Source: Minisyncoccota bacterium (GTDB lineage Bacteria; Patescibacteriota; Minisyncoccia; Phycocordibacterales; SBAW01). From it: DNA of 64,000 nucleotides. The position numbers were made by a program, and so were the translations under genes. The notes under the pieces are model-generated. The model did no database searches and was not told the DNA's origin. It saw nothing but the letters and a program-made list of their open reading frames with translations. Below, piece after piece: positions 3,147 through 28,642 of this stretch. The number at the start of each line of letters is the position of its first letter. Position 1 is the first letter of the stretch. The DNA is taken from the NCBI GenBank assembly GCA_035546615.1, contig DASZWM010000003.1:32001-96000 (forward strand), written 5' to 3'.

Positions 3147-4850
3147 TTAGTAGTCCATGTCGTCTCCGCCCATTCCTCCCATGCCTCCCTGCATGCCGGG
3201 GCTTCCCTTTTCTTCCTTCGGCTCCTCCGCTATCACCGCTTCGGTCGTCAACAGCATTGCCGCCGCGGATGCCGCGCGCTCCAGGCCCGTGCGCGCCACC
3301 TTGACCGGGTCAATGATGCCGGCCGCTATCATATCGGGCACCACTTCGTTCTTGACCGCGTCGTAGCCGGCGTTCCCGCTTGCCTCGCGCACCTTCTCCA
3401 CGACCACGCCCGGGTCCACGCCCGCGTTCATGGCTATCTGGCGGAGCGGCTGCTCAAGCGCCTTGATGATTATTTCGTAGCCCACGCGCTCTTCGTGGCT
3501 CATACTCGTGAGCGAAGACTCCACGACCGGCGCGATGGAGCCGCGGCGCGGCTTTATCTTGGCGAACCCTTCCACTACCTTTTGTGCCGCCTTCACGAGC
3601 GACGTGCCGCCGCCCGGAACGATACCCTCCTCAATGGCTGCCTTGGTCGCATTGACCGCGTCCTCGATCTTCAGCTTCAAATACTTCATTTCGGTCTCGG
3701 TCGCCGCGCCCACGCGGATGACAGCAACGCCGCCGGACAACTTTGCCAGGCGCTCGTTGAACTTCTCCTTGTCGAACTTGGAGTCGGTCGATTCTACCTG
3801 CGCGCGTATTTGCGCAATGCGCGCATCGATGTCTTTCTTGGCGCCCTTGCCGCCGACTATCACCGTCGAGTCCTTTGTTGCAATAACCTTGCCGGCCTTG
3901 CCAAGCATGCCAAGCGTCGCATTCTCGAACTTGACGCCGGTCTTCTCTGAAATCAGCTCGCCGCCGGTCATGATGGCGATGTCTTCGAGCATTTCCTGCT
4001 TGCGGTCGCCGTAGCCCGGCGCCTTTATCGCCAGCACGTTGAACGAGCCGCGCAGCTTGTTGAGGATAAATGTGGAGAGCGCTTCGCCGTCCACGTCGTC
4101 GGCCACGATGACCAAGTCCTTCTTGCCGGACTCCGCTACCTTCTGGAGTATCGGGAGCACTTCCTGCACGCTCGATATCTTTTTGTCGGTAATCAGTATC
4201 GGCGCGTCCTTATATACGGCTTCCATGCGGCTGGCGTCGGTCACCATGTAGGCGGACACGTAGCCGCGGTCGAACTCGAGGCCCTCTACGACCTCCTTTT
4301 CGATGCCGAGGCTCTGCGACTCTTCCACCGTCACTACGCCGTCCTTCCCCACTTCTTTAATAGTGTCGGCAATTATTGCGCCGATTTCCGCGGACTCCGC
4401 GGAAATGGTCGCGACCTGGCGTATCTCGTCGTCGTTTTGGATCTTCTTGGCAAGGCCGCGCAACGCGGCAACGGCATCGGCGGCAGCCTTCTCGATGCCG
4501 GCGCGCACGCCCATGGCATTCAGGCCCGCTTCCGTGTGCTTCATGCCTTCCTCGACTATCGCCTGAAGGAGCACGACGGAGGTCGTAGTGCCGTCGCCCG
4601 CGATGTCGTTGGTGCGGCTTGCCACTTCCTTCACTATCTCGGCGCCCATATTCTCGAACTTGTTGCTGAAAGATATCTCCTTGGCGATGGAAACGCCGTC
4701 GTTGGTGATGGTGGGGCTTCCGTAGCCCTTGTCCAGGGCGACGTTGCGGCCGCGGGGGCCGAGCGTTATCTTCACCGCGTTCGCGGCCTTGTCGATGCCT
4801 GCCTTCAGCGTCCGGCGCGCGCGCTCGTTAAAAAGGATTTGCTTTGCCAT
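3147..4850 (-). CDS. groL: Chaperonin GroEL (60 kDa)
   Basis: Full-length match to GroEL ([12 protein letters not shown], ...), C-terminal GGM repeats, and groES immediately upstream. Confidence 0.98.
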
Positions 4851-4881
4851 AGGTAAGGTAAAGAATTACGGGATAATCTGG

Positions 4882-5265
4882 TTATTTAAGTATTGCGAGG
4901 ATCTCGGATTCGGACACGAAGTAATATTCCACGCCGTTTATCTTCTCCGGCTCGCTCCACGGCTTCGTGAAGTACACGCGGTCGCCGACTTTTACGTCGA
5001 ACTGTAGCCGTTCGCCGTTCTCCCCCCGCTTGCCGGTACCGACCGCCACCACAATGCCGCGGTTGGGCTTGGTCTTGTCGACGGTCTCGGGAATAATGAT
5101 GCCGAAGGAGGTCGTGGTGCCCATTTCCTCCTCGGAGAGCGGCCGCACGAGCACTTTGTCGCCCAGCGGCATGATGCCGCTCTTGTTGACGGGCTCTGAA
5201 GCGCGCGCGGGCTTGGCTCCGGTTTTCTTAGCAGTCTTAGCCGCCTTTTTTGCCTTCTTTTTCAT
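4882..5265 (-). CDS. groS: Co-chaperonin GroES with N-terminal Lys/Ala-rich extension
   Basis: The core IMPLGDKVLVRP...GIIIPE...VVAVG is GroES. The ATG at 5265 adds a 30-aa KKAKKAAK tail. An alternative start is the internal ATG at about 5172. Confidence 0.9.
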   Translation of the reverse strand: MKKKAKKAAKTAKKTGAKPARASEPVNKSGIMPLGDKVLVRPLSEEEMGTTTSFGIIIPETVDKTKPNRGIVVAVGTGKRGENGERLQFDVKVGDRVYFTKPWSEPEKINGVEYYFVSESEILAILK

Positions 5266-21694: not shown

Positions 21695-22105
21695 TTATCT
21701 GATGCGGATCCGGCGGAGGGCTTTGCGGGCTTTTTTGTAGTCCGGAATGGTCTCTTCGACCAGGGCCCAGAAGGCGGGGCTGTGGTTCATTTCCTTCAGG
21801 TGGCACAGCTCGTGGGTTACGACATATTCGGCCAGGCGCGGCGGCAAGAAAAGGAGGCGGTAGTTGAAGTTGAGGTTGCCGTGCTCCGAGCAGCTCCCCC
21901 ACCGCGAACGGCTGTTCTTTATGAATACCCGGCGCACGGCGTAGTCGTAGTGCGCGTTGAGGCGCGCGATGAGCGCATGGACAAGCGCGCGAGCCTCTTC
22001 CTTATACAGCTGGAACTTCCGCGAACTAGCCGCCGAAGCCGGGCGTCGTCTCCGTACCCGCCGCCGATATACGATTTTGTATCCAAACACCGAGGTATTG
22101 TACAA
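21695..22105 (-). CDS. YgjP-like metal-dependent hydrolase (DUF45/M48-like, HExxH)
   Basis: WGSCSEHGNLNFNYRLLFLPPRLAEYVVTHELCHLKEMNHSPAFW. TTG start, Arg-rich N-terminus. This is the last GC-rich gene before the island. Confidence 0.6.
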   Translation of the reverse strand: MYNTSVFGYKIVYRRRVRRRRPASAASSRKFQLYKEEARALVHALIARLNAHYDYAVRRVFIKNSRSRWGSCSEHGNLNFNYRLLFLPPRLAEYVVTHELCHLKEMNHSPAFWALVEETIPDYKKARKALRRIRIR

Positions 22106-22141
22106 CCTTACTTAATGGCAGGCTCAGATATAGATTTATAA

Positions 22142-22540
22142 CTACAAAATTGAGATAACTTTCTTAACGACGGAGTCTGAAGCACTCTTGAGTCGATGTT
22201 CCCATATTCTTAATACCTTCCAATTCATACTTTTTAATTGTTTATTAACCAATCTATCTCTTTTCTTATTTCTTTCTATTTTGTTAGTCCAATATGCGCG
22301 ATTTGTCTTTGGAACTCTACAGTGAGTCTTACATCCGTGCCAAAAACAAGAGTCAATGAAAATTGCTGTCTTAGAAACAGAAAAAACAATATCAGGTCTG
22401 CCTGGCAATTTTGCCACATGAGTTGTAAACTTTAGTTTACTTTTTTTCAGTTGCTTCTGAAAAGATTTTTCTATACCTGAATTTCTACTCTTAATGAGAC
22501 GCATTATTTCGCTGCGTCTTCCAGAAGATACATTGTCCAT
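22142..22540 (-). CDS. vsr: Very short patch repair endonuclease Vsr
   Basis: FIDSCFWHGC...P.TN..YW..KI..N..RD motifs. Confidence 0.9.
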   Translation of the reverse strand: MDNVSSGRRSEIMRLIKSRNSGIEKSFQKQLKKSKLKFTTHVAKLPGRPDIVFSVSKTAIFIDSCFWHGCKTHCRVPKTNRAYWTNKIERNKKRDRLVNKQLKSMNWKVLRIWEHRLKSASDSVVKKVISIL

Positions 22541-22544
22541 GCCT

Positions 22545-23612
22545 TTATTCTTCTATATCCCAACCTGTTGGAAGTGTGATTTTGGTATAGGCTCTTTCTT
22601 TGATAAAAGGGACAATCTCTGCGCTCGAAGGAAACTCTGCGTCAAATTCTCTCGTTAAATCACTTAACAAAGTGCCAGCAAGTCGTTCTCTATATTCTTT
22701 ACTGAGGCAAAGAGTATACCAGTCATGCAAATCTTTAAGAGTAATTATTCCTTGCACACGCTCAATAATCCCGAGCTGTTGTAGCAGGGCCTCAATAGGT
22801 TTCTTTTCTGCGTCTCGACAAACAATTACAATCCTGTCCGCTTCGATTCCCTCGACAATTCCTTCGGTTACTTCAGGAGTAAGTGTAAGGTGTTTTACCT
22901 GGATAGCTGTTCCAAAATTTGCCCACATATCTAATCCCCTATCCGCCGCATTCGTTACGCCAACTCTAAAAAGGGCTGCGGGCATAGCTACTTGAGTCTT
23001 TCTGGCATCTATGCCTAAAACCATTTTTATAAAACCTTCAAAATCAGTAAGTATTTCTTTGTCTTCATTTTTAATCGAAAGGGTGATTTCCGCTTTTAAT
23101 GCTCGTACAATAGCGGAAAAAAGAGCATGCACTGCTATTTCATATATTTTATCTGTGCTTCGTCTCAAGCCAGGACTTGATGTAAAAAGTTCCACTAATT
23201 CCATTATGGAAAAAGTGTCCACTGTTGACTGTTCGATATAGTCTCTTACCCGATGAACAGATAGTAACTTATTTTGTAAAGCTTTATAAATATAAGCCTC
23301 TACTCCGCCCTTACTTGTTGTATTTATTTTTCCTAACACTGCCAATAGTTGGGGCGGCATAGCATTAGGCTCAAAGATATTATCTTGGTACTTTGCGCTA
23401 GAAGTACTGCTCCTCCCAACAAGTAAGGTGGAGACTTCATCTCTCCAACGTTTAGAGACAGAGCGATAACTTTCTAGATCAGTTAGTTCTAGCTTTTTCT
23501 TAGTTCTATGATAGAAAAGTATCTCCGCTATCTGTATAGGTTTATAGAAGTGCACTCTGGCCTTCTTTATAACTGAATCCAGAGCCGCTTTTGCTTCTTC
23601 AGCCATTGACAT
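22545..23612 (-). CDS. Putative type II restriction endonuclease (family unassigned)
   Basis: The 355-aa ORF lies between the C5-MTase and vsr and overlaps the MTase stop by 14 nt. No family was identified by eye. Confidence 0.5.
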   Translation of the reverse strand: MSMAEEAKAALDSVIKKARVHFYKPIQIAEILFYHRTKKKLELTDLESYRSVSKRWRDEVSTLLVGRSSTSSAKYQDNIFEPNAMPPQLLAVLGKINTTSKGGVEAYIYKALQNKLLSVHRVRDYIEQSTVDTFSIMELVELFTSSPGLRRSTDKIYEIAVHALFSAIVRALKAEITLSIKNEDKEILTDFEGFIKMVLGIDARKTQVAMPAALFRVGVTNAADRGLDMWANFGTAIQVKHLTLTPEVTEGIVEGIEADRIVIVCRDAEKKPIEALLQQLGIIERVQGIITLKDLHDWYTLCLSKEYRERLAGTLLSDLTREFDAEFPSSAEIVPFIKERAYTKITLPTGWDIEE

Positions 23613-24621
23613 ACGCCCGTTCTACCATATTTATGTCTTTTCCGCTAAACAATTCAGTTTGTTCAATAAAAGGAACCGGGTCTTTCGACATTGCTTCAAC
23701 CATTGCGTGGGCCACTGCTTCCATCTGAGGAACCACTACAGCATTACCAGCTTGCTTCCGGATTTGCTGGTCAGCAACAACAAATTTATATGAATCGGGA
23801 AAACCCTGTAATCTAAACATCTCTCTAGGAGTCAGTCTTCTTTCTCCATTTACAATAAGATAGTTATATGAACCATTAGCCCTAAGAGCGCATGAATAAG
23901 CATTCACGCCTAGGTTTCCAGACTTATTTTCGTGCAAGATTAACGGACGAGAATGAAGTTCTTTGTGTTGTTCTTTTAATTGTCTCTGGACTTTCTGCAA
24001 CATATAATCGCTAAGAAAGTGTTTTTTATCGACCTCATTATCAGGCTCAAGGATGTCTTCAAGAGTTTTCTTTTTTCCCCTCCCTTTGGTAGGAAATTCA
24101 AAAGGGTAGTTTTCTCTAAAACCTACAATCATTATTCGCTCTCTCTTTTGCGGAACGCCAAAATCTAGACCATTTAAAACTTTAAAGTGCACAAAATAAC
24201 CTAGTTTTCTTAAACTATTTAGAATTACTGAAAACGTCCTTCCTTGATCATGATTGGTAAGTTGTTTTACATTTTCCAAAAATAGAGCTTTTGGTTTCTT
24301 TGCCTTTAGAATTCTCTCAACATCAAAAAACAACGTGCCTCTTGTTTCAGAGAAACCTTTCATATTCCCCATGATGCTAAAAGCTTGGCATGGAAAACCG
24401 CCTGTCAAAATATCATGGTCAGGCACATCTTTTGCAACTATTTTCGTTATATCTCCATCTGGCTGGTCGCCGAAATGATTCTTATACATCTTCTGCGCAG
24501 CTTCATCCCATTCTGATGTAAAAACACATTTACCTCCTGCCGCTTCAAAACCAAGTCTAATGCCTCCAATTCCTGCAAAGAGATCGATAAAAGTAAATTT
24601 ATTCTTATTCGTTGGAGCCAT
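23599..24621 (-). CDS. dcm: DNA (cytosine-5)-methyltransferase
   Basis: Motif I FIDLFAGIGG, motif IV GGFPCQAFS, motif VI ENV, motif VIII QRRERI-like. Confidence 0.95.
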   Translation of the reverse strand: MAPTNKNKFTFIDLFAGIGGIRLGFEAAGGKCVFTSEWDEAAQKMYKNHFGDQPDGDITKIVAKDVPDHDILTGGFPCQAFSIMGNMKGFSETRGTLFFDVERILKAKKPKALFLENVKQLTNHDQGRTFSVILNSLRKLGYFVHFKVLNGLDFGVPQKRERIMIVGFRENYPFEFPTKGRGKKKTLEDILEPDNEVDKKHFLSDYMLQKVQRQLKEQHKELHSRPLILHENKSGNLGVNAYSCALRANGSYNYLIVNGERRLTPREMFRLQGFPDSYKFVVADQQIRKQAGNAVVVPQMEAVAHAMVEAMSKDPVPFIEQTELFSGKDINMVERAYVNG

Positions 24622-24851
24622 AGAGCAATATATTTTAACACCTATTTTAAGCTTGCTATATTTTTAATAATAGCACTGAAATCTATATTTATACACAATA
24701 TACACAAGTCTTGGGGATAACTTTAGTGAGGGCCGTTTTTGGTCCAGGATAGCCGTATCCGCCAGCCGATAAAAATAGAGTAAGGGGGTAAAGATCAGCA
24801 ATCGTGGGATGAGCGTGTCTAATAGTCACCTAAGGATTTATAGCCATAAGG

Positions 24852-25193
24852 CTATTGTGGCAAACCCTTAATTTTGTTTCTGAAGAAATTAAATCGCATC
24901 TTAGCATAGTCCCAAAGAAAAGAGCAGAACGACTTATTTGGATGTCTTTTTATTTCACGCAAGTTCTCGAAAGCATAATTAAGTATATCTATAAATAATA
25001 ACCCTGGTACAACACCCAATGCGAATATATACCAATCAGAAAAACGTGTTTTTAACAAACTGTAAGTCGCATTTACTGCAATTCCAAGAACTACCGCAAG
25101 CGTCGCACCGAGTATCACAAATGCCCACTGTATTTGTAGACTTCTTTCCTCTTGTAAATCACCCTTGTTCATGGCGAATATATCTAATAACAA
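24852..25193 (-). CDS. Small two-TM membrane protein (candidate effector of the Ubl/E1 module)
   Basis: Two hydrophobic helices (WAFVILGATLAVVLGIAV; WYIFALGVVPGLLFIDIL). TTG at 25193 or ATG at 25172. It lies 8 nt after the upstream stop. Confidence 0.5.
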   Translation of the reverse strand: MLLDIFAMNKGDLQEERSLQIQWAFVILGATLAVVLGIAVNATYSLLKTRFSDWYIFALGVVPGLLFIDILNYAFENLREIKRHPNKSFCSFLWDYAKMRFNFFRNKIKGLPQ

Positions 25194-25201
25194 GTAAAAA
25201 A

Positions 25202-25612
25202 TTATTCGAAGAAGCTACGCAATTGGACTAATATCCAGTTTCCAAATCGTCGCCACCATGACAGGGAGGAATGAATAAAGTATGCATCCTTGATGGTATC
25301 GTCATATTCTCGCCCGTGGCGTATCTGTTCTCGAGTCATCTTCGACGCCCAAATCACTTGATTTTCAATAATCCAATAATGTGACTGACAAGGATGATTC
25401 CAGTTTCCTATTGAAGGACGTAGCGAGACCACCCCCTGCCAATCAACTAGCGTATATTCGGTCTTACGGAGAGGGGTAACGATTTTAGTGCCACAACTGC
25501 AACAGCACAAATGGCTCGCGGTTCCGAAACGTCGTGAGATATATAGAACACCACTCTCAAGCTCTCTTGGTATGAACTCAACATATTCAGGACGCACCAA
25601 CTCTGTCTTCAT
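25202..25612 (-). CDS. Cys-rich Zn-ribbon-like protein (DUF6527-like, recalled)
   Basis: HLCCCSCGTK...NHPCQSH cluster. The ATG at 25612 overlaps the E1-like gene stop (ATGA-type coupling). Confidence 0.5.
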   Translation of the reverse strand: MKTELVRPEYVEFIPRELESGVLYISRRFGTASHLCCCSCGTKIVTPLRKTEYTLVDWQGVVSLRPSIGNWNHPCQSHYWIIENQVIWASKMTREQIRHGREYDDTIKDAYFIHSSLSWWRRFGNWILVQLRSFFE

Positions 25613-26808
25613 ATACAATCCTCTTTTGTAAGGGCGTGGGTCGCAATCGTGTACAGCGAATGACGTTCTCGCACATCATCAGCATAAAAACCACACAATT
25701 GCTTCCATTTTCCCACAGCCATGGCAGCATTTAGCATATTTAGGTCCGCAACCTGCATATTACGGTACACCGCCTCGGCCGGCACTTTTGCAAATGAAAC
25801 AACTTCCGCAATATGTCCATGATGGTCGGGTGTTCCAACTGTAAAGCGACACTGTCCGCGCAGAGACGCCTGATTATCGAGTGCCAAGTCTATTCCAACG
25901 TCTATGAACGGCACACCAAGAGCAATAAGGCCATTAAGTATGTTCTTCCGGCTCTCTCCGTCGTCGATAGCAACAAACACGAAGTCGAACCCGGACAGCT
26001 CGTGGAGATGCGCGTCCTGGACATAGTAGGGATGACGCTTCAAGCCCTTGTGTATACGTTCGTATATACCACTGAACCAATCCACTTTTAGTGGATTGTT
26101 AAGCTCCTGCTTCATCGGAGCACCCGGTGCTCTAAACGCGTTGTGGAGTTCGAACGTATCCCCATCGAAAATGTGGATTTCTTTCACCGGCGTCTTAGCA
26201 ACAAGGTCGAGAATATACGAACCAGTACCACCTAGTCCTATAATCGCCACCCGACTTGCAAGGAGTTTCGCCGTGGCCGCTCCAATACCAGCACGGGTTG
26301 TTGCCATATCAGGATAATGGAATGCGAGTTCCTGAGCTTCGACTACCGCCGGTACTGGTTTTTCACTTCGTGGATCGCAAGTCCGATCAATTGCTTGAGC
26401 TTCGTGCCAAATCAGACGAACATATGTCCAGATTTTTTCGTAGTAGTCGGCATACTTGCGCTTATCAGCGTGCACACGCGAGAAGGCGACAGTCGTCTTA
26501 ATCCCATCGCCCTTATCCTCCTCAGCGTTGTTCGAAATCATCTCCGTCATTAGTTGACCATCCGCGTTGTGCGGGGGTTCTCCAATCCACCAACACTGAT
26601 GGTTGGAACATGGATTCACTGTCTTTCCGGCCGCATCAATTTCAAGTGGGCAATAGAGAATTCCAGGCACTATTTTGCCTTCAGAGGTAACAGCAGGAAT
26701 TCCCTCAATTAAAAGATGAGAGGCAGTCCCTTGAATGACCCGGAGACGAAAACCTTCCGCCTCCAACTTTGCCAAATCGGCATTATGACTTATCCGTATT
26801 TCTGACAT
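25609..26808 (-). CDS. E1-like ThiF/MoeB-fold enzyme with ~165-aa N-terminal domain of unknown fold
   Basis: VAIIGLGGTGSYILDLVAKTPVKEIHIFDGDTFELHNAFR is a ThiF nucleotide-binding motif. The N-terminal domain has conserved-looking C/H residues (YCPLE, NPCSNHQCWW, PPHN). Confidence 0.8.
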   Translation of the reverse strand: MSEIRISHNADLAKLEAEGFRLRVIQGTASHLLIEGIPAVTSEGKIVPGILYCPLEIDAAGKTVNPCSNHQCWWIGEPPHNADGQLMTEMISNNAEEDKGDGIKTTVAFSRVHADKRKYADYYEKIWTYVRLIWHEAQAIDRTCDPRSEKPVPAVVEAQELAFHYPDMATTRAGIGAATAKLLASRVAIIGLGGTGSYILDLVAKTPVKEIHIFDGDTFELHNAFRAPGAPMKQELNNPLKVDWFSGIYERIHKGLKRHPYYVQDAHLHELSGFDFVFVAIDDGESRKNILNGLIALGVPFIDVGIDLALDNQASLRGQCRFTVGTPDHHGHIAEVVSFAKVPAEAVYRNMQVADLNMLNAAMAVGKWKQLCGFYADDVRERHSLYTIATHALTKEDCI

Positions 26809-27040
26809 CGAAGTTCATATGATCGACCACATCTACACTTTGGCCCCGGCGAAGCGATCCTTCGTGTCCACCTGGCTTAGTCCATGAAACGCTGTAGCGA
26901 ACATCGCCTCCGAACGGACCAGTTGGGAATGCGAGCTTGATGACTTGCTCGTAGCTAATATCGTGTTCACCCCACTTCTCTTGAATACCGTTCACAACAA
27001 TGCTTATGGTGTGTCCATGCCCTTTATTATCGTCTGCCAT
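26783..27040 (-). CDS. Multiubiquitin-like beta-grasp protein (85 aa, no C-terminal GG)
   Basis: ISIVVNG...ISYEQVIKLAFP...RYSVSW...GQSVDVVDHMNFDVR matches, from memory, the multiubiquitin domain pattern of prokaryotic E1/E2 operons. It overlaps the E1-like gene start by 26 nt. Confidence 0.5.
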   Translation of the reverse strand: MADDNKGHGHTISIVVNGIQEKWGEHDISYEQVIKLAFPTGPFGGDVRYSVSWTKPGGHEGSLRRGQSVDVVDHMNFDVRNTDKS

Positions 27041-27224
27041 ATAATTTTAATTGTCGGCTTTTTAATTTAAGTGCGGCACCGGTCGACCGCACTTGTATCG
27101 TACACCCATTTCTGATACCCTTGCAAGGTAACTAGATGTATCAAATGTTACCTAAAGTACCATATTTGTTATATCTGATACCTGTTGTTACAACCTATAA
27201 CAAGTTACGCACAGATTTCAAATC

Positions 27225-27584
27225 ATGAGAAAATCATCCGCTACAATAAACAATGAAAGCAGATCCACAGAGCTTGAAATCCGGAAAGAGATTGGCAGAC
27301 GTATCGCTGAAATGCGTAGCAAACTGGGGCTTACAGCTCGCCTTGTTGCCAAAGAACTTCATGTCTCACGCGAAGCCATTACTCACATTGAAACAGGGCG
27401 AAACAATATATCTGCCGTATCGCTGTGGGAATTGGCGACTCTCTTCCATTGTGATATTGCTGATTTTTTCCCTGATATTCCTAATGGATATTCTTTAACT
27501 AGGGTCGATATTAATAAAGTAGCACAAATGAGTGGAAAGACAGGGGCGGCATGGGCTGAAAAGATTTTTGGGAAAAAGAAATAA
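27225..27584 (+). CDS. XRE-family HTH transcriptional regulator (CapH/ImmR-like)
   Basis: HTH_3 signature IGRRIAEMRSKLGLTARLVAKELHVSREAITHIETGRNNIS. Confidence 0.85.
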   Translation: MRKSSATINNESRSTELEIRKEIGRRIAEMRSKLGLTARLVAKELHVSREAITHIETGRNNISAVSLWELATLFHCDIADFFPDIPNGYSLTRVDINKVAQMSGKTGAAWAEKIFGKKK

Positions 27585-27588
27585 ATAT

Positions 27589-28083
27589 ATGATGTCAGAA
27601 AGAATTGAGAAAAAAGCGGAGGAAGTCTTAAGCGCACTGAATGTTAAGTCAATACCTATCTCTGTTGAAGAAATCGCGAATCAATTAAAGATCAAGATAG
27701 GAAGAGCACCTAGTAGTGAATTTTCTGGAATGTTGATTCGAAAAGATGGTCGAGCACTTATGGGTATAAATAACAGTGAAGGCACTGCGAGACAACGATT
27801 CACTATTGCGCATGAACTTGGGCATTATTTCTTACATCCACAAAATGATACTTTTGTAGACTATAGGCAGAACGAAAAAGAACCAAGAAATCATAGAGAA
27901 CGAGAGGCTGATATGTTTGCAGCAGCACTCTTAATGCCTAGGAAAGAAGTAACAAAAGACTTTCAGAAAATTGTTAGGAAAGGATTTTCAGAAATTGAAC
28001 TTCACAAACTGGCAGGAAAATATGAAGTGAGCGACAAAGCAATGAGATTTAGGTTAGTAAACTTAAATATGCTATTAGGTTAA
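27589..28083 (+). CDS. ImmA/IrrE family Zn-metallopeptidase (CapP/ImmA-like)
   Basis: HELGHYFLH HExxH motif in the COG2856 fold context. It lies immediately downstream of the XRE gene. Confidence 0.85.
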   Translation: MMSERIEKKAEEVLSALNVKSIPISVEEIANQLKIKIGRAPSSEFSGMLIRKDGRALMGINNSEGTARQRFTIAHELGHYFLHPQNDTFVDYRQNEKEPRNHREREADMFAAALLMPRKEVTKDFQKIVRKGFSEIELHKLAGKYEVSDKAMRFRLVNLNMLLG

Positions 28084-28087
28084 GATT

Positions 28088-28348
28088 TTATTGTCTACTC
28101 CCTTGTGATCCTAATCTATCCGTAAAAGGTCCCTCACGATGGGCCGCCGGATCTACATCCTTTTTTGTAATAACCTGGGGAAAGCGGGTATTTTCTTCAA
28201 TCTGCTCTAGTAACGTGACTATTCTGTTCAATTTCCAGTACCAGGTAAGGATTTCCCTGATCAGGAGGAATATCAGAGCGCCCACGCATAGGACAAAAAC
28301 GATATTTGGTAGCTGGGACCAGTAATATTGAAATAAGGGTTGAAGCAT
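28088..28348 (-). CDS. Small membrane protein (one TM helix), downstream partner of AbrB-like gene
   Basis: IVFVLCVGALIFLLI helix. Coordinates are from the track. Confidence 0.4.
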   Translation of the reverse strand: MLQPLFQYYWSQLPNIVFVLCVGALIFLLIREILTWYWKLNRIVTLLEQIEENTRFPQVITKKDVDPAAHREGPFTDRLGSQGSRQ

Positions 28349-28351
28349 ATA

Positions 28352-28540
28352 TTACTTCTTCCAGTCGCGGATTATCAGCTTCTTTCTCTTCAGATCCACC
28401 TCTACGGTGAGCTTTTGGCGCTCTTTCCACTTGAACTTGCGGATAGCCTCCACCGGAAGCGCGACCGTATAGGTACTTCCCCGCCCCGTCTTGGTGAGCT
28501 TGCGGACCTGCTTTTTCTGCCCCGCCTTCGGCCGTGCCAT
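28352..28540 (-). CDS. AbrB/MazE/SpoVT-like small DNA-binding protein (candidate antitoxin)
   Basis: VRKLTKTGRGSTYTVALPVEAIRKFKWKERQKLTVEV resembles the looped-hinge helix fold. Confidence 0.45.
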   Translation of the reverse strand: MARPKAGQKKQVRKLTKTGRGSTYTVALPVEAIRKFKWKERQKLTVEVDLKRKKLIIRDWKK

Positions 28541-28600
28541 GCGGATATGATACCACCGAACTCCTGAGCTAACTCAAGAGTTAGCTCAGGAGTTAATTAA

Positions 28601-28627
28601 AAACCGGCGCCTGGGGCGCCGGTTTGG
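28601..28627. terminator. Bidirectional intrinsic terminator at the island's right edge
   Basis: AAAAACCGGCGCC-TGGG-GCGCCGGTTT. Confidence 0.6.
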
Positions 28628-28642
28628 CCAAGGTTGGCCGGA

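Follow-up and report, generated by a model that had tools for sequence, protein, structure and literature searches.

A probable Type II Bub operon with a divergent HTH and M78 peptidase gene pair in a small low-GC island of a Minisyncoccota bacterium

A 64,000-nucleotide (nt) stretch of a Minisyncoccota bacterium genome (assembly GCA_035546615.1, contig DASZWM010000003.1, positions 32,001 to 96,000 of the forward strand; hereafter the window, whose own numbering is used throughout) carries at 24,852 to 27,040 a run of minus-strand genes that, together with a divergent helix-turn-helix (HTH) and M78 peptidase pair, very probably represents a Type II Bub operon, i.e., a ubiquitin-like (Ubl) protein conjugation system, lodged in a small defense island of low G+C content (GC). 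The Bub operons were formerly known as the '6E' or 'DUF6527' operons (Ye et al., bioRxiv 10.1101/2024.11.21.623953). Their Type II (6E.2) version comprises BubA (the Ubl), BubBD (an E2-E1 fusion), and BubE (a Ser-His protease with a C4 zinc site), typically without a JAB peptidase and often with divergent genes for CapH and CapP, a pair recorded in 31% of 544 Bub operons (10.1101/2024.11.21.623953). The features found in the window are the BubA-like Ubl, the E2-E1 fusion with its Ser, Lys, and His and its Arg/Gly motif and Tyr, and BubE, with no JAB domain. The initial annotation, made from the sequence alone, had regarded the gene set as undescribed and as falling outside the Bub architectures; this was wrong because a Ubl, an E2-E1 fusion, and a DUF6527 protein lacking a JAB partner and with CapH/CapP genes upstream are precisely the published Type II definition, and every diagnostic residue of the trio is conserved.

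The four co-directional minus-strand open reading frames (ORFs) that had been proposed are all present in the ORF list, and an independent gene call on the Logan assembly of run SRR12170516, in which 6,868 bp (window 21761-28628) recur at 100% identity, returned products of exactly 85, 399, 136, and 106 amino acids (aa). The first of these genes, bubA (26783..27040, -), codes for an 85-aa protein with a single β-grasp domain, and its earlier reading as a multiubiquitin-type β-grasp protein is borne out by a match to Pfam Multi_ubiq (PF14452, E = 4e-12, well above the curated cut-off). The PDB sequence match is the E. coli ZDHYS365 multi-ubiquitin protein (9cd2), a BubA of demonstrated biochemical activity with which it has the terminal TDKS in common, and the AlphaFold2 model (mean predicted local distance difference test score, pLDDT, 83) adopts the β-grasp fold with 9cd2 as the top Foldseek match (E = 1e-6, TM-score 0.76, 34% identity). 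The protein ends in ...VRNTDKS, with the stop codon right after the C-terminal Ser. The initial annotation had read this ...NTDKS end correctly but had singled it out for not being Gly-Gly, which is not unusual: VRNTDKS is invariant across 46 close BubA homologs, and 67 of the 68 BubA ORFs adjoining a BubBD gene terminate in Ser, with the consensus T-[DN]-[KR]-S. Judged by these sequences, the ending is a signature of Type II BubA and no anomaly. Given that the stop codon immediately follows this Ser, no processing peptidase would be needed, which is consistent with the Type II operons lacking a JAB domain. The passages of the Bub preprint on the end of the Ubl discuss only the Gly of the Type I systems.

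The second gene, bubBD (25609..26808, -), overlaps bubA by 26 nt and codes for a 399-aa E2-E1 fusion (the NCBI product, from a different start codon, is 388 aa). Its two Pfam matches, DUF6791 (aa 10-167, E = 1e-30) and ThiF (aa 178-315, E = 8e-14), both score above their curated cut-offs, and the protein matches NCBIfam PRK06153.1-3 from end to end with 422 bits against a cut-off of 340. More than 6,900 homologs were recovered at E <= 1e-5, and the 120 best listed all combine DUF6791 with ThiF. The C-terminal adenylation domain (aa 178-399; 25612..26277, -), correctly recognized earlier as a ThiF/E1 fold, has its GxGGxG motif at aa 191-196, together with Arg226 and, in the crossover loop, Tyr348. 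In the PDB, the protein is closest in sequence to Citrobacter BubCD (9ea4 and related entries), and R226 aligns with the BubCD Arg that is equated with the published R227 through a two-residue chain offset. The suggestion that the N-terminal domain of about 165 aa might be E2-like also proved apt, as the DUF6791 region (aa 10-167; 26308..26781, -) has an E2 fold whose best structural match is the E2 of the Citrobacter Type I Bub system, with Ser110 as the putative catalytic residue accompanied by His70 and Lys125. In a 115-sequence BubBD alignment H70 and K125 are retained in all members, S110 in 114, and Y348 in 113, with at most one exception for R226, and all five are invariant in a 26-sequence alignment. 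The pattern persists in a wider set of 80 metagenomic proteins (38-71% identical): H70, S110, and R226 occur in 80/80 and K125 in 76/80; a Tyr corresponding to Y348 lies four to five residues ahead of the invariant Gln352 in every sequence; and G191, G193, G194, and G196, along with R226, are kept in at least 79. This conservation fits the published invariant Ser with Lys and His plus a crossover-loop Tyr. For the E. coli ZDHYS365 BubBD, ATP-dependent formation of BubA conjugates has been reported to be lost in the R219A, Y342F, and S106A mutants, these residues being, respectively, the adenylation Arg, the crossover-loop Tyr, and the Ser of the E2 domain (10.1101/2024.11.21.623953). None of the cysteines is conserved above 26% in the 80-sequence set. 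The initial annotation had raised the possibility that the spaced Cys and His residues of the N-terminal domain are catalytic; this stands for H70, which is invariant and fits the Ser, Lys, and His set, but not for the cysteines of NPCSNHQCWW, kept at 6-10%. As candidate catalytic residues C53, C67, and C72 were likewise rejected, being kept in only 6-14% of the wider family. One homolog out of 115 has a Cys at the position of Ser110.

The third gene, bubE (25202..25612, -), starts on the bubBD stop codon in an ATGA overlap and codes for 136 aa from this ATG (the ORF list gives an alternative TTG start at 25618, for 138 aa). Its product matches Pfam DUF6527 (PF20137, E = 2e-18, above the curated cut-off), a family that the Pfam labels precomputed for the homolog contigs name 'BubE', and it is predicted to be a Ser-His protease with a C4 zinc site. 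The earlier assignment to DUF6527 as a zinc protein is thus upheld by the profile match and the four conserved cysteines. Its description as a Zn-ribbon is partly right, in that the zinc-site cysteines are present, but the protein is more than a ribbon, since DUF6527 is biochemically a Ser-His protease: BubE is a weak protease with an S92/H102 dyad and a C4 zinc site that takes BubA off its targets (10.1101/2024.11.21.623953). Each of C36, C38, C40, C75, S67, and H78 is kept in at least 97% of 73 BubE sequences, and these residues correspond to C57, C59, C61, and C99 and to S92 and H102 of the Citrobacter protein. A local departure is Ser39 (25495-25497), where 97% of the relatives have Gly (CCCSC here versus CxCGC). 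The C-terminal extension reads from the sequence as hydrophobic or amphipathic (segment ...SSLSWWRRFGNWILVQLRSFFE), and no transmembrane (TM) segment is predicted in BubE; the hydrophobic extensions of BubE proteins have been proposed to contact membranes (10.1101/2024.11.21.623953).

The geometry of the operon is that of its relatives. An alignment-based metagenome scan gave 80 BubBD loci and a single-protein genome scan gave five, and 83 loci with a BubBD relative were compared. Across these, the commonest arrangement is a 26-nt bubA/bubBD overlap and a 4-nt bubBD/bubE overlap, as in the window; the long overlap suggests that translational coupling has been conserved or that the shared coding segment is under constraint. 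It keeps this rank down to protein identities of about 40%. Upstream of the operon, 41 of the 83 loci have a CapP-like gene, and in the annotated neighborhoods of three homologs the three-gene core recurs beside a divergent M78 peptidase gene. A scan of viral contigs with the BubBD alignment yielded one true locus, 69% identical, at 4001-5182 of the 39.9-kb contig IMGVR_UViG_3300005937_000719.

Several observations weigh against this identification or limit its reach. No Bub operon is yet reported to protect against phages (10.1101/2024.11.21.623953), and the 'defense' label of the locus would accordingly derive from its context. PADLOC v2.0.0 has no Bub models (BubA, BubE), so that no defense-system caller confirmed the assignment; it is uninformative for the classification because it matches the E1 only through its Cap2 'E1-E2' models on the Rossmann region. 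The match of the BubBD residues to S106, R219, and Y342 of the E. coli protein was set by conservation and offset, not by direct alignment, and BubBD has His80 (26569-26571) where 70 of 80 relatives have Cys. The regulatory peptidase is a further departure. Characterized CapP proteins consist of a peptidase domain, an HTH-like linker, and a GAF domain, and bind single-stranded DNA (ssDNA) in the inter-domain groove (10.1101/2022.04.27.489752); the protein in the window is 164 aa long, covers only positions 3-153 of the 242 of the capP profile, and has neither the GAF domain nor the three-domain architecture with the ssDNA groove. It is therefore an assumption here that the system senses DNA damage or is activated by ssDNA, and the ssDNA-sensing mechanism of CapP may be inapplicable to it. 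On its length and domain content, the peptidase is better described as CapP-like and ImmA-sized.

Past bubE lies a fourth gene (24852..25172, -), whose ATG is 29 nt beyond the bubE stop codon (with the TTG at 25193 as start, the protein would have 113 aa and the gap would shrink to 8 nt). The earlier description of a protein of roughly 110 aa with two TM helices is accurate: it is 106 aa long from the ATG, with hydrophobic segments at aa 11-40 and 46-68 and a basic tail (9 Lys/Arg in 38 residues). Profile scans with Pfam, PADLOC, NCBIfam, and PHROGs returned no family match for it (PHROGs had nothing for BubA and BubE either), and a word-indexed protein search returned no sequence but its own. 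When 1.84 billion representatives were searched exhaustively with HMMER, a small uncharacterized family emerged, with 26 members at E <= 1e-3 (12 of them at E <= 1e-10), mostly of about 100 aa and with the same layout, in which only W16 and Y37 are invariant; the existence of this family indicates that the ORF is a real gene. No terminator was found between it and bubE, a weak terminator-like match lying inside the ORF, which makes co-transcription plausible, and the gene is probably transcribed together with bubE. Two 228-aa proteins upstream of family members in separate contexts were considered as a conserved partner and rejected, not being homologous by BLASTP. At the loci L014-L016, an upstream 158-aa membrane protein weakly matches the profile hidden Markov model (HMM) of the two-TM family (E = 0.002-0.004).

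The initial annotation had treated this protein as the effector of the system, and it can be asked whether the locus represents a new system of four genes, with an abortive-infection membrane effector controlled by BubA conjugation or deconjugation. Besides its orientation, its closeness to bubE, and the lack of an intervening terminator, such a role would be in keeping with the two TM segments and Lys/Arg-rich tail of a genuine family and with the proposed membrane contacts of the BubE extensions, and relatives of the gene twice stand at the 3' end of defense-type sets (after an HTH and reverse-transcriptase pair, and after a type I HsdR gene plus a 158-aa membrane protein). The comparative evidence, however, goes the other way. 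The family HMM matches none of the 89 loci retrieved through BubBD, and what recurs across the Bub loci is the three-gene core. In the closest relatives (70-81% BubBD identity), there is no co-directional gene past bubE but a convergent Abi_C or SIR2-STAND gene. Among 48 Bub loci with at least 500 nt past bubE, no conserved gene follows it: in 27 of them a raw co-directional ORF of 50 aa or more is present, with a predicted TM segment in only five, and among ten of the longer ORFs those with a Pfam match are heterogeneous (deaminase, DUF4238, zeta-like kinase, caspase-helicase, FTCD_C-M78). The relatives of the two-TM gene, which also occur before a MazG-like gene, before a TfoX_N gene, or beside a Y1 transposase, have no Bub neighbors in the contexts examined, and the GC of the gene (0.36) resembles that of the adjacent restriction-modification cassette (0.34-0.40) and not that of the Bub core (0.45-0.49). 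A fourth gene for a membrane effector is hence not found as a Bub component; the two-TM gene is a locus-specific accessory, and we regard a four-gene system with its product as the effector as quite improbable. There is also only a slim chance that the family comprises modular small membrane proteins at the 3' ends of various defense operons, with the present one serving as an effector, anchor, or target of BubA conjugation.

Two further readings would place the enzymes themselves elsewhere. In favor of a housekeeping sulfur-carrier pair of a MoeB/ThiF enzyme and a MoaD/ThiS-like β-grasp protein, one could cite the weak matches of ThiF/MoeB models to the Rossmann region (E = 1e-7 to 0.03), but the ThiF, MoeB, and SAMP-E1 equivalogs score just 13-31 bits against cut-offs of 150-450 and cover about 50 residues. 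These scores, set beside the 422 bits of PRK06153.1-3, exclude a housekeeping sulfur-transfer enzyme, so that the placement named at the outset as a refuting outcome did not occur; the fused E2-fold domain, the Multi_ubiq partner ending in Ser and not in Gly-Gly, the translationally coupled DUF6527 protease gene, and the location in a low-GC island with restriction-modification genes all speak against this reading too, and its probability is close to nil. Nor is there any appreciable likelihood that the locus is a degenerate or minimal relative of Type II cyclic oligonucleotide-based antiphage signaling systems (CBASS), 6A-MBL, or Bil systems using Cap2-like E2-E1 chemistry via cysteine thioesters. 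The PADLOC E1-E2 (Cap2) models do match the Rossmann region (best E = 4e-9, 33 bits); however, the E2 active-site position is an invariant Ser with no conserved Cys, the NCBIfam cap2_3 model of 6A-MBL reaches 18.8 bits against a cut-off of 320, and profile scans of the island detected no CD-NTase, JAB peptidase, MBL protein, or separate E2. The initial annotation had been right to set the locus apart from Type II CBASS and Bil, since the cyclase, the JAB peptidase, the separate E2, and the IAD-AAD-CYS features of the E1 are all lacking.

For the Type II Bub operon, the regulatory genes follow the CapH/CapP arrangement, with the HTH and M78 pair divergently upstream of bubA; the tie of CapH/CapP to 6e systems was noted already in 2022. 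The CapH-like HTH repressor (119 aa; 27225..27584, +) matches Pfam HTH_3 (E = 4e-10) and PADLOC capH (E = 3.5e-5). It is followed by the gene for the 164-aa CapP-like M78 (ImmA/IrrE-type) zinc metallopeptidase (27589..28083, +), which matches Pfam Peptidase_M78 (E = 4e-23) and PADLOC capP (E = 5e-38). HELGH and downstream EREAD motifs can be read from its sequence, with no Cys between them and no cysteine-switch loop, an element present in one third of CapP proteins (10.1101/2022.04.27.489752). The 184-nt region between bubA and the HTH gene (27041..27224), presumably the divergent promoter and operator region, contains inverted repeats at 27128-27151 and 27168-27191 (GTAAC...GTTAC), a direct repeat AT(T/A)TCTGATACC at 27108 and 27171, and, in the bubA leader, a perfect 8-bp hairpin at 27069-27094. 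These repeats could be candidate operator or regulatory sites; a simple sigma-70 scan of 27041-27224 found no promoter.

The mechanism that we propose is transferred from the biochemistry of the E. coli ZDHYS365 and Citrobacter systems, with the locus itself contributing family membership, conserved residues, folds, operon geometry, and gene neighborhoods; its enzymology, its regulation, and any antiphage role are accordingly stated as expectations. By this analogy, the HTH protein would repress the divergent promoter until it is cleaved by the M78 peptidase. BubBD, probably as a dimer, would then adenylate the C-terminal carboxylate of BubA (...TDKS) at the ThiF-type site formed by GxGGxG and Arg226, after which BubA might pass as an oxyester to the crossover-loop Tyr348 and from there, with help from His70 and Lys125, to Ser110 in the fused E2 domain, to be joined finally to a target lysine. 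BubE, stabilized by zinc and equipped with Ser67-His78 and its hydrophobic tail, would strip BubA from the targets and thus restrain the pathway.

The earlier report of a low-GC island is confirmed: GC lies at 0.34-0.49 between 22.1 and 28.3 kb and at 0.56-0.60 in the flanks, whose identified genes are ordinary chromosomal ones (LexA, AlkB-like oxygenase, cyclophilin, YgjP, MliC, and a GH18 hydrolase). The two-TM gene and the CapP-like gene, both at 0.36, are akin in GC to the restriction-modification cassette and unlike the Bub core, which points to a mosaic island. The context noted at first, a restriction-modification cassette and a divergent HTH-peptidase switch, was recovered by profile searches as a HaeII-type cassette with Vsr and the HTH and M78 pair. 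The type II cassette is complete and directly downstream (22142-24621, -): its C5 methylase is of the Dcm type (340 aa), its endonuclease (355 aa) belongs to the HaeII family, and Vsr, the very-short-patch repair nuclease, has 132 aa. As had been stated, no cGAS/CD-NTase cyclase, JAB peptidase, or free-standing E2 was detected by profile scans among the ten island proteins from 22142-28348. At the right edge of the island (28088-28556, -), a basic 62-aa ORF (28352-28540) is followed after 3 nt by an 86-aa ORF (28088-28348) with one TM segment, neither matching Pfam or PHROG profiles; the Logan gene caller has an overlapping 119-aa ORF (28197-28556) in their place. The Logan contig ends about 300-400 nt beyond either island border, which could reflect strain heterogeneity for the island.

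As a further Type II Bub operon in a family whose catalogued operons number in the hundreds and whose homologs number in the thousands, the locus has little discovery value, and its peculiarities (the one-domain Ubl, His80, the short peptidase, and the appended two-TM gene) are minor or unsupported. It is nonetheless a compact natural variant and a possible experimental construct by virtue of its one-domain Ubl, short regulator peptidase, and adjacent two-TM gene, while two traits are of use as signatures in annotation, namely the C-terminal Ser consensus and the fixed 26-nt overlap of bubA and bubBD. Should the two-TM protein be an effector, anchor, or target after all, it would offer a first handle on what a Bub system does to the cell.

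Among known systems, the E. coli ZDHYS365 Type II Bub operon shares with the one in the window its three genes with their order, overlaps, and Pfam families, the E2 Ser with Lys and His, the adenylation Arg, the crossover Tyr, the Ser-His dyad and four Cys of BubE, and the ...TDKS end of BubA; the absence of a JAB peptidase, the divergent HTH and M78 pair, and the location in a mobile or defense island are likewise those of Type II operons. It differs in BubA, which has three β-grasp domains in E. coli (structures in 10.1101/2024.11.21.623966) versus one here, a one-domain form accounting for about 40% of Bub Ubls, whereas the His80 of BubBD, the CCCSC of BubE, the short GAF-less regulator peptidase, and the appended two-TM gene set the present locus apart from Type II operons more generally. 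The Type I operon of Citrobacter sp. RHBSTW-00271 (BubAB, a Ubl-E2 fusion; BubCD, a JAB-E1 fusion; and BubE; structures 9ea4, 9ea8, and 9eav) provides the best PDB sequence match for the E1 adenylation domain and the best structural match for the E2, and has in common BubE and the proposed oxyester chemistry (Tyr, then Ser). There, however, the E2 is fused to the Ubl and not to the E1, the Ubl ends in Gly and not in Ser, and the E2 Ser is accompanied by His and Asp instead of Lys and His, while the operon in the window has no JAB domain and needs no pre-protein cleavage.

The Bil and Type II CBASS Cap2/Cap3 systems resemble it in using Ubl or E1/E2-based conjugation in defense islands, Bil also having a Ubl and CBASS Cap2 also being an E2-E1 fusion. 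Bil, however, deploys a separate E1 (IAD-AAD-CYS), an E2, and a JAB peptidase, with a catalytic Cys, none of which occurs here, the one 399-aa E2-E1 fusion having neither a second adenylation domain nor a CYS insertion; Type II CBASS, for its part, conjugates a CD-NTase and not a Ubl and has a JAB peptidase (Cap3), and neither component was detected among the island proteins. On the regulatory side, the CapH and CapP switch (Lau et al., 10.1101/2022.04.27.489752) has the same organization, namely a divergent HTH repressor gene and then an M78 HExxH metallopeptidase gene upstream of an immune-type operon. Related regulator pairs are ImmR/ImmA and DdrO/IrrE, and the 164-aa peptidase described here is nearer in size to ImmA than to the characterized CapP.

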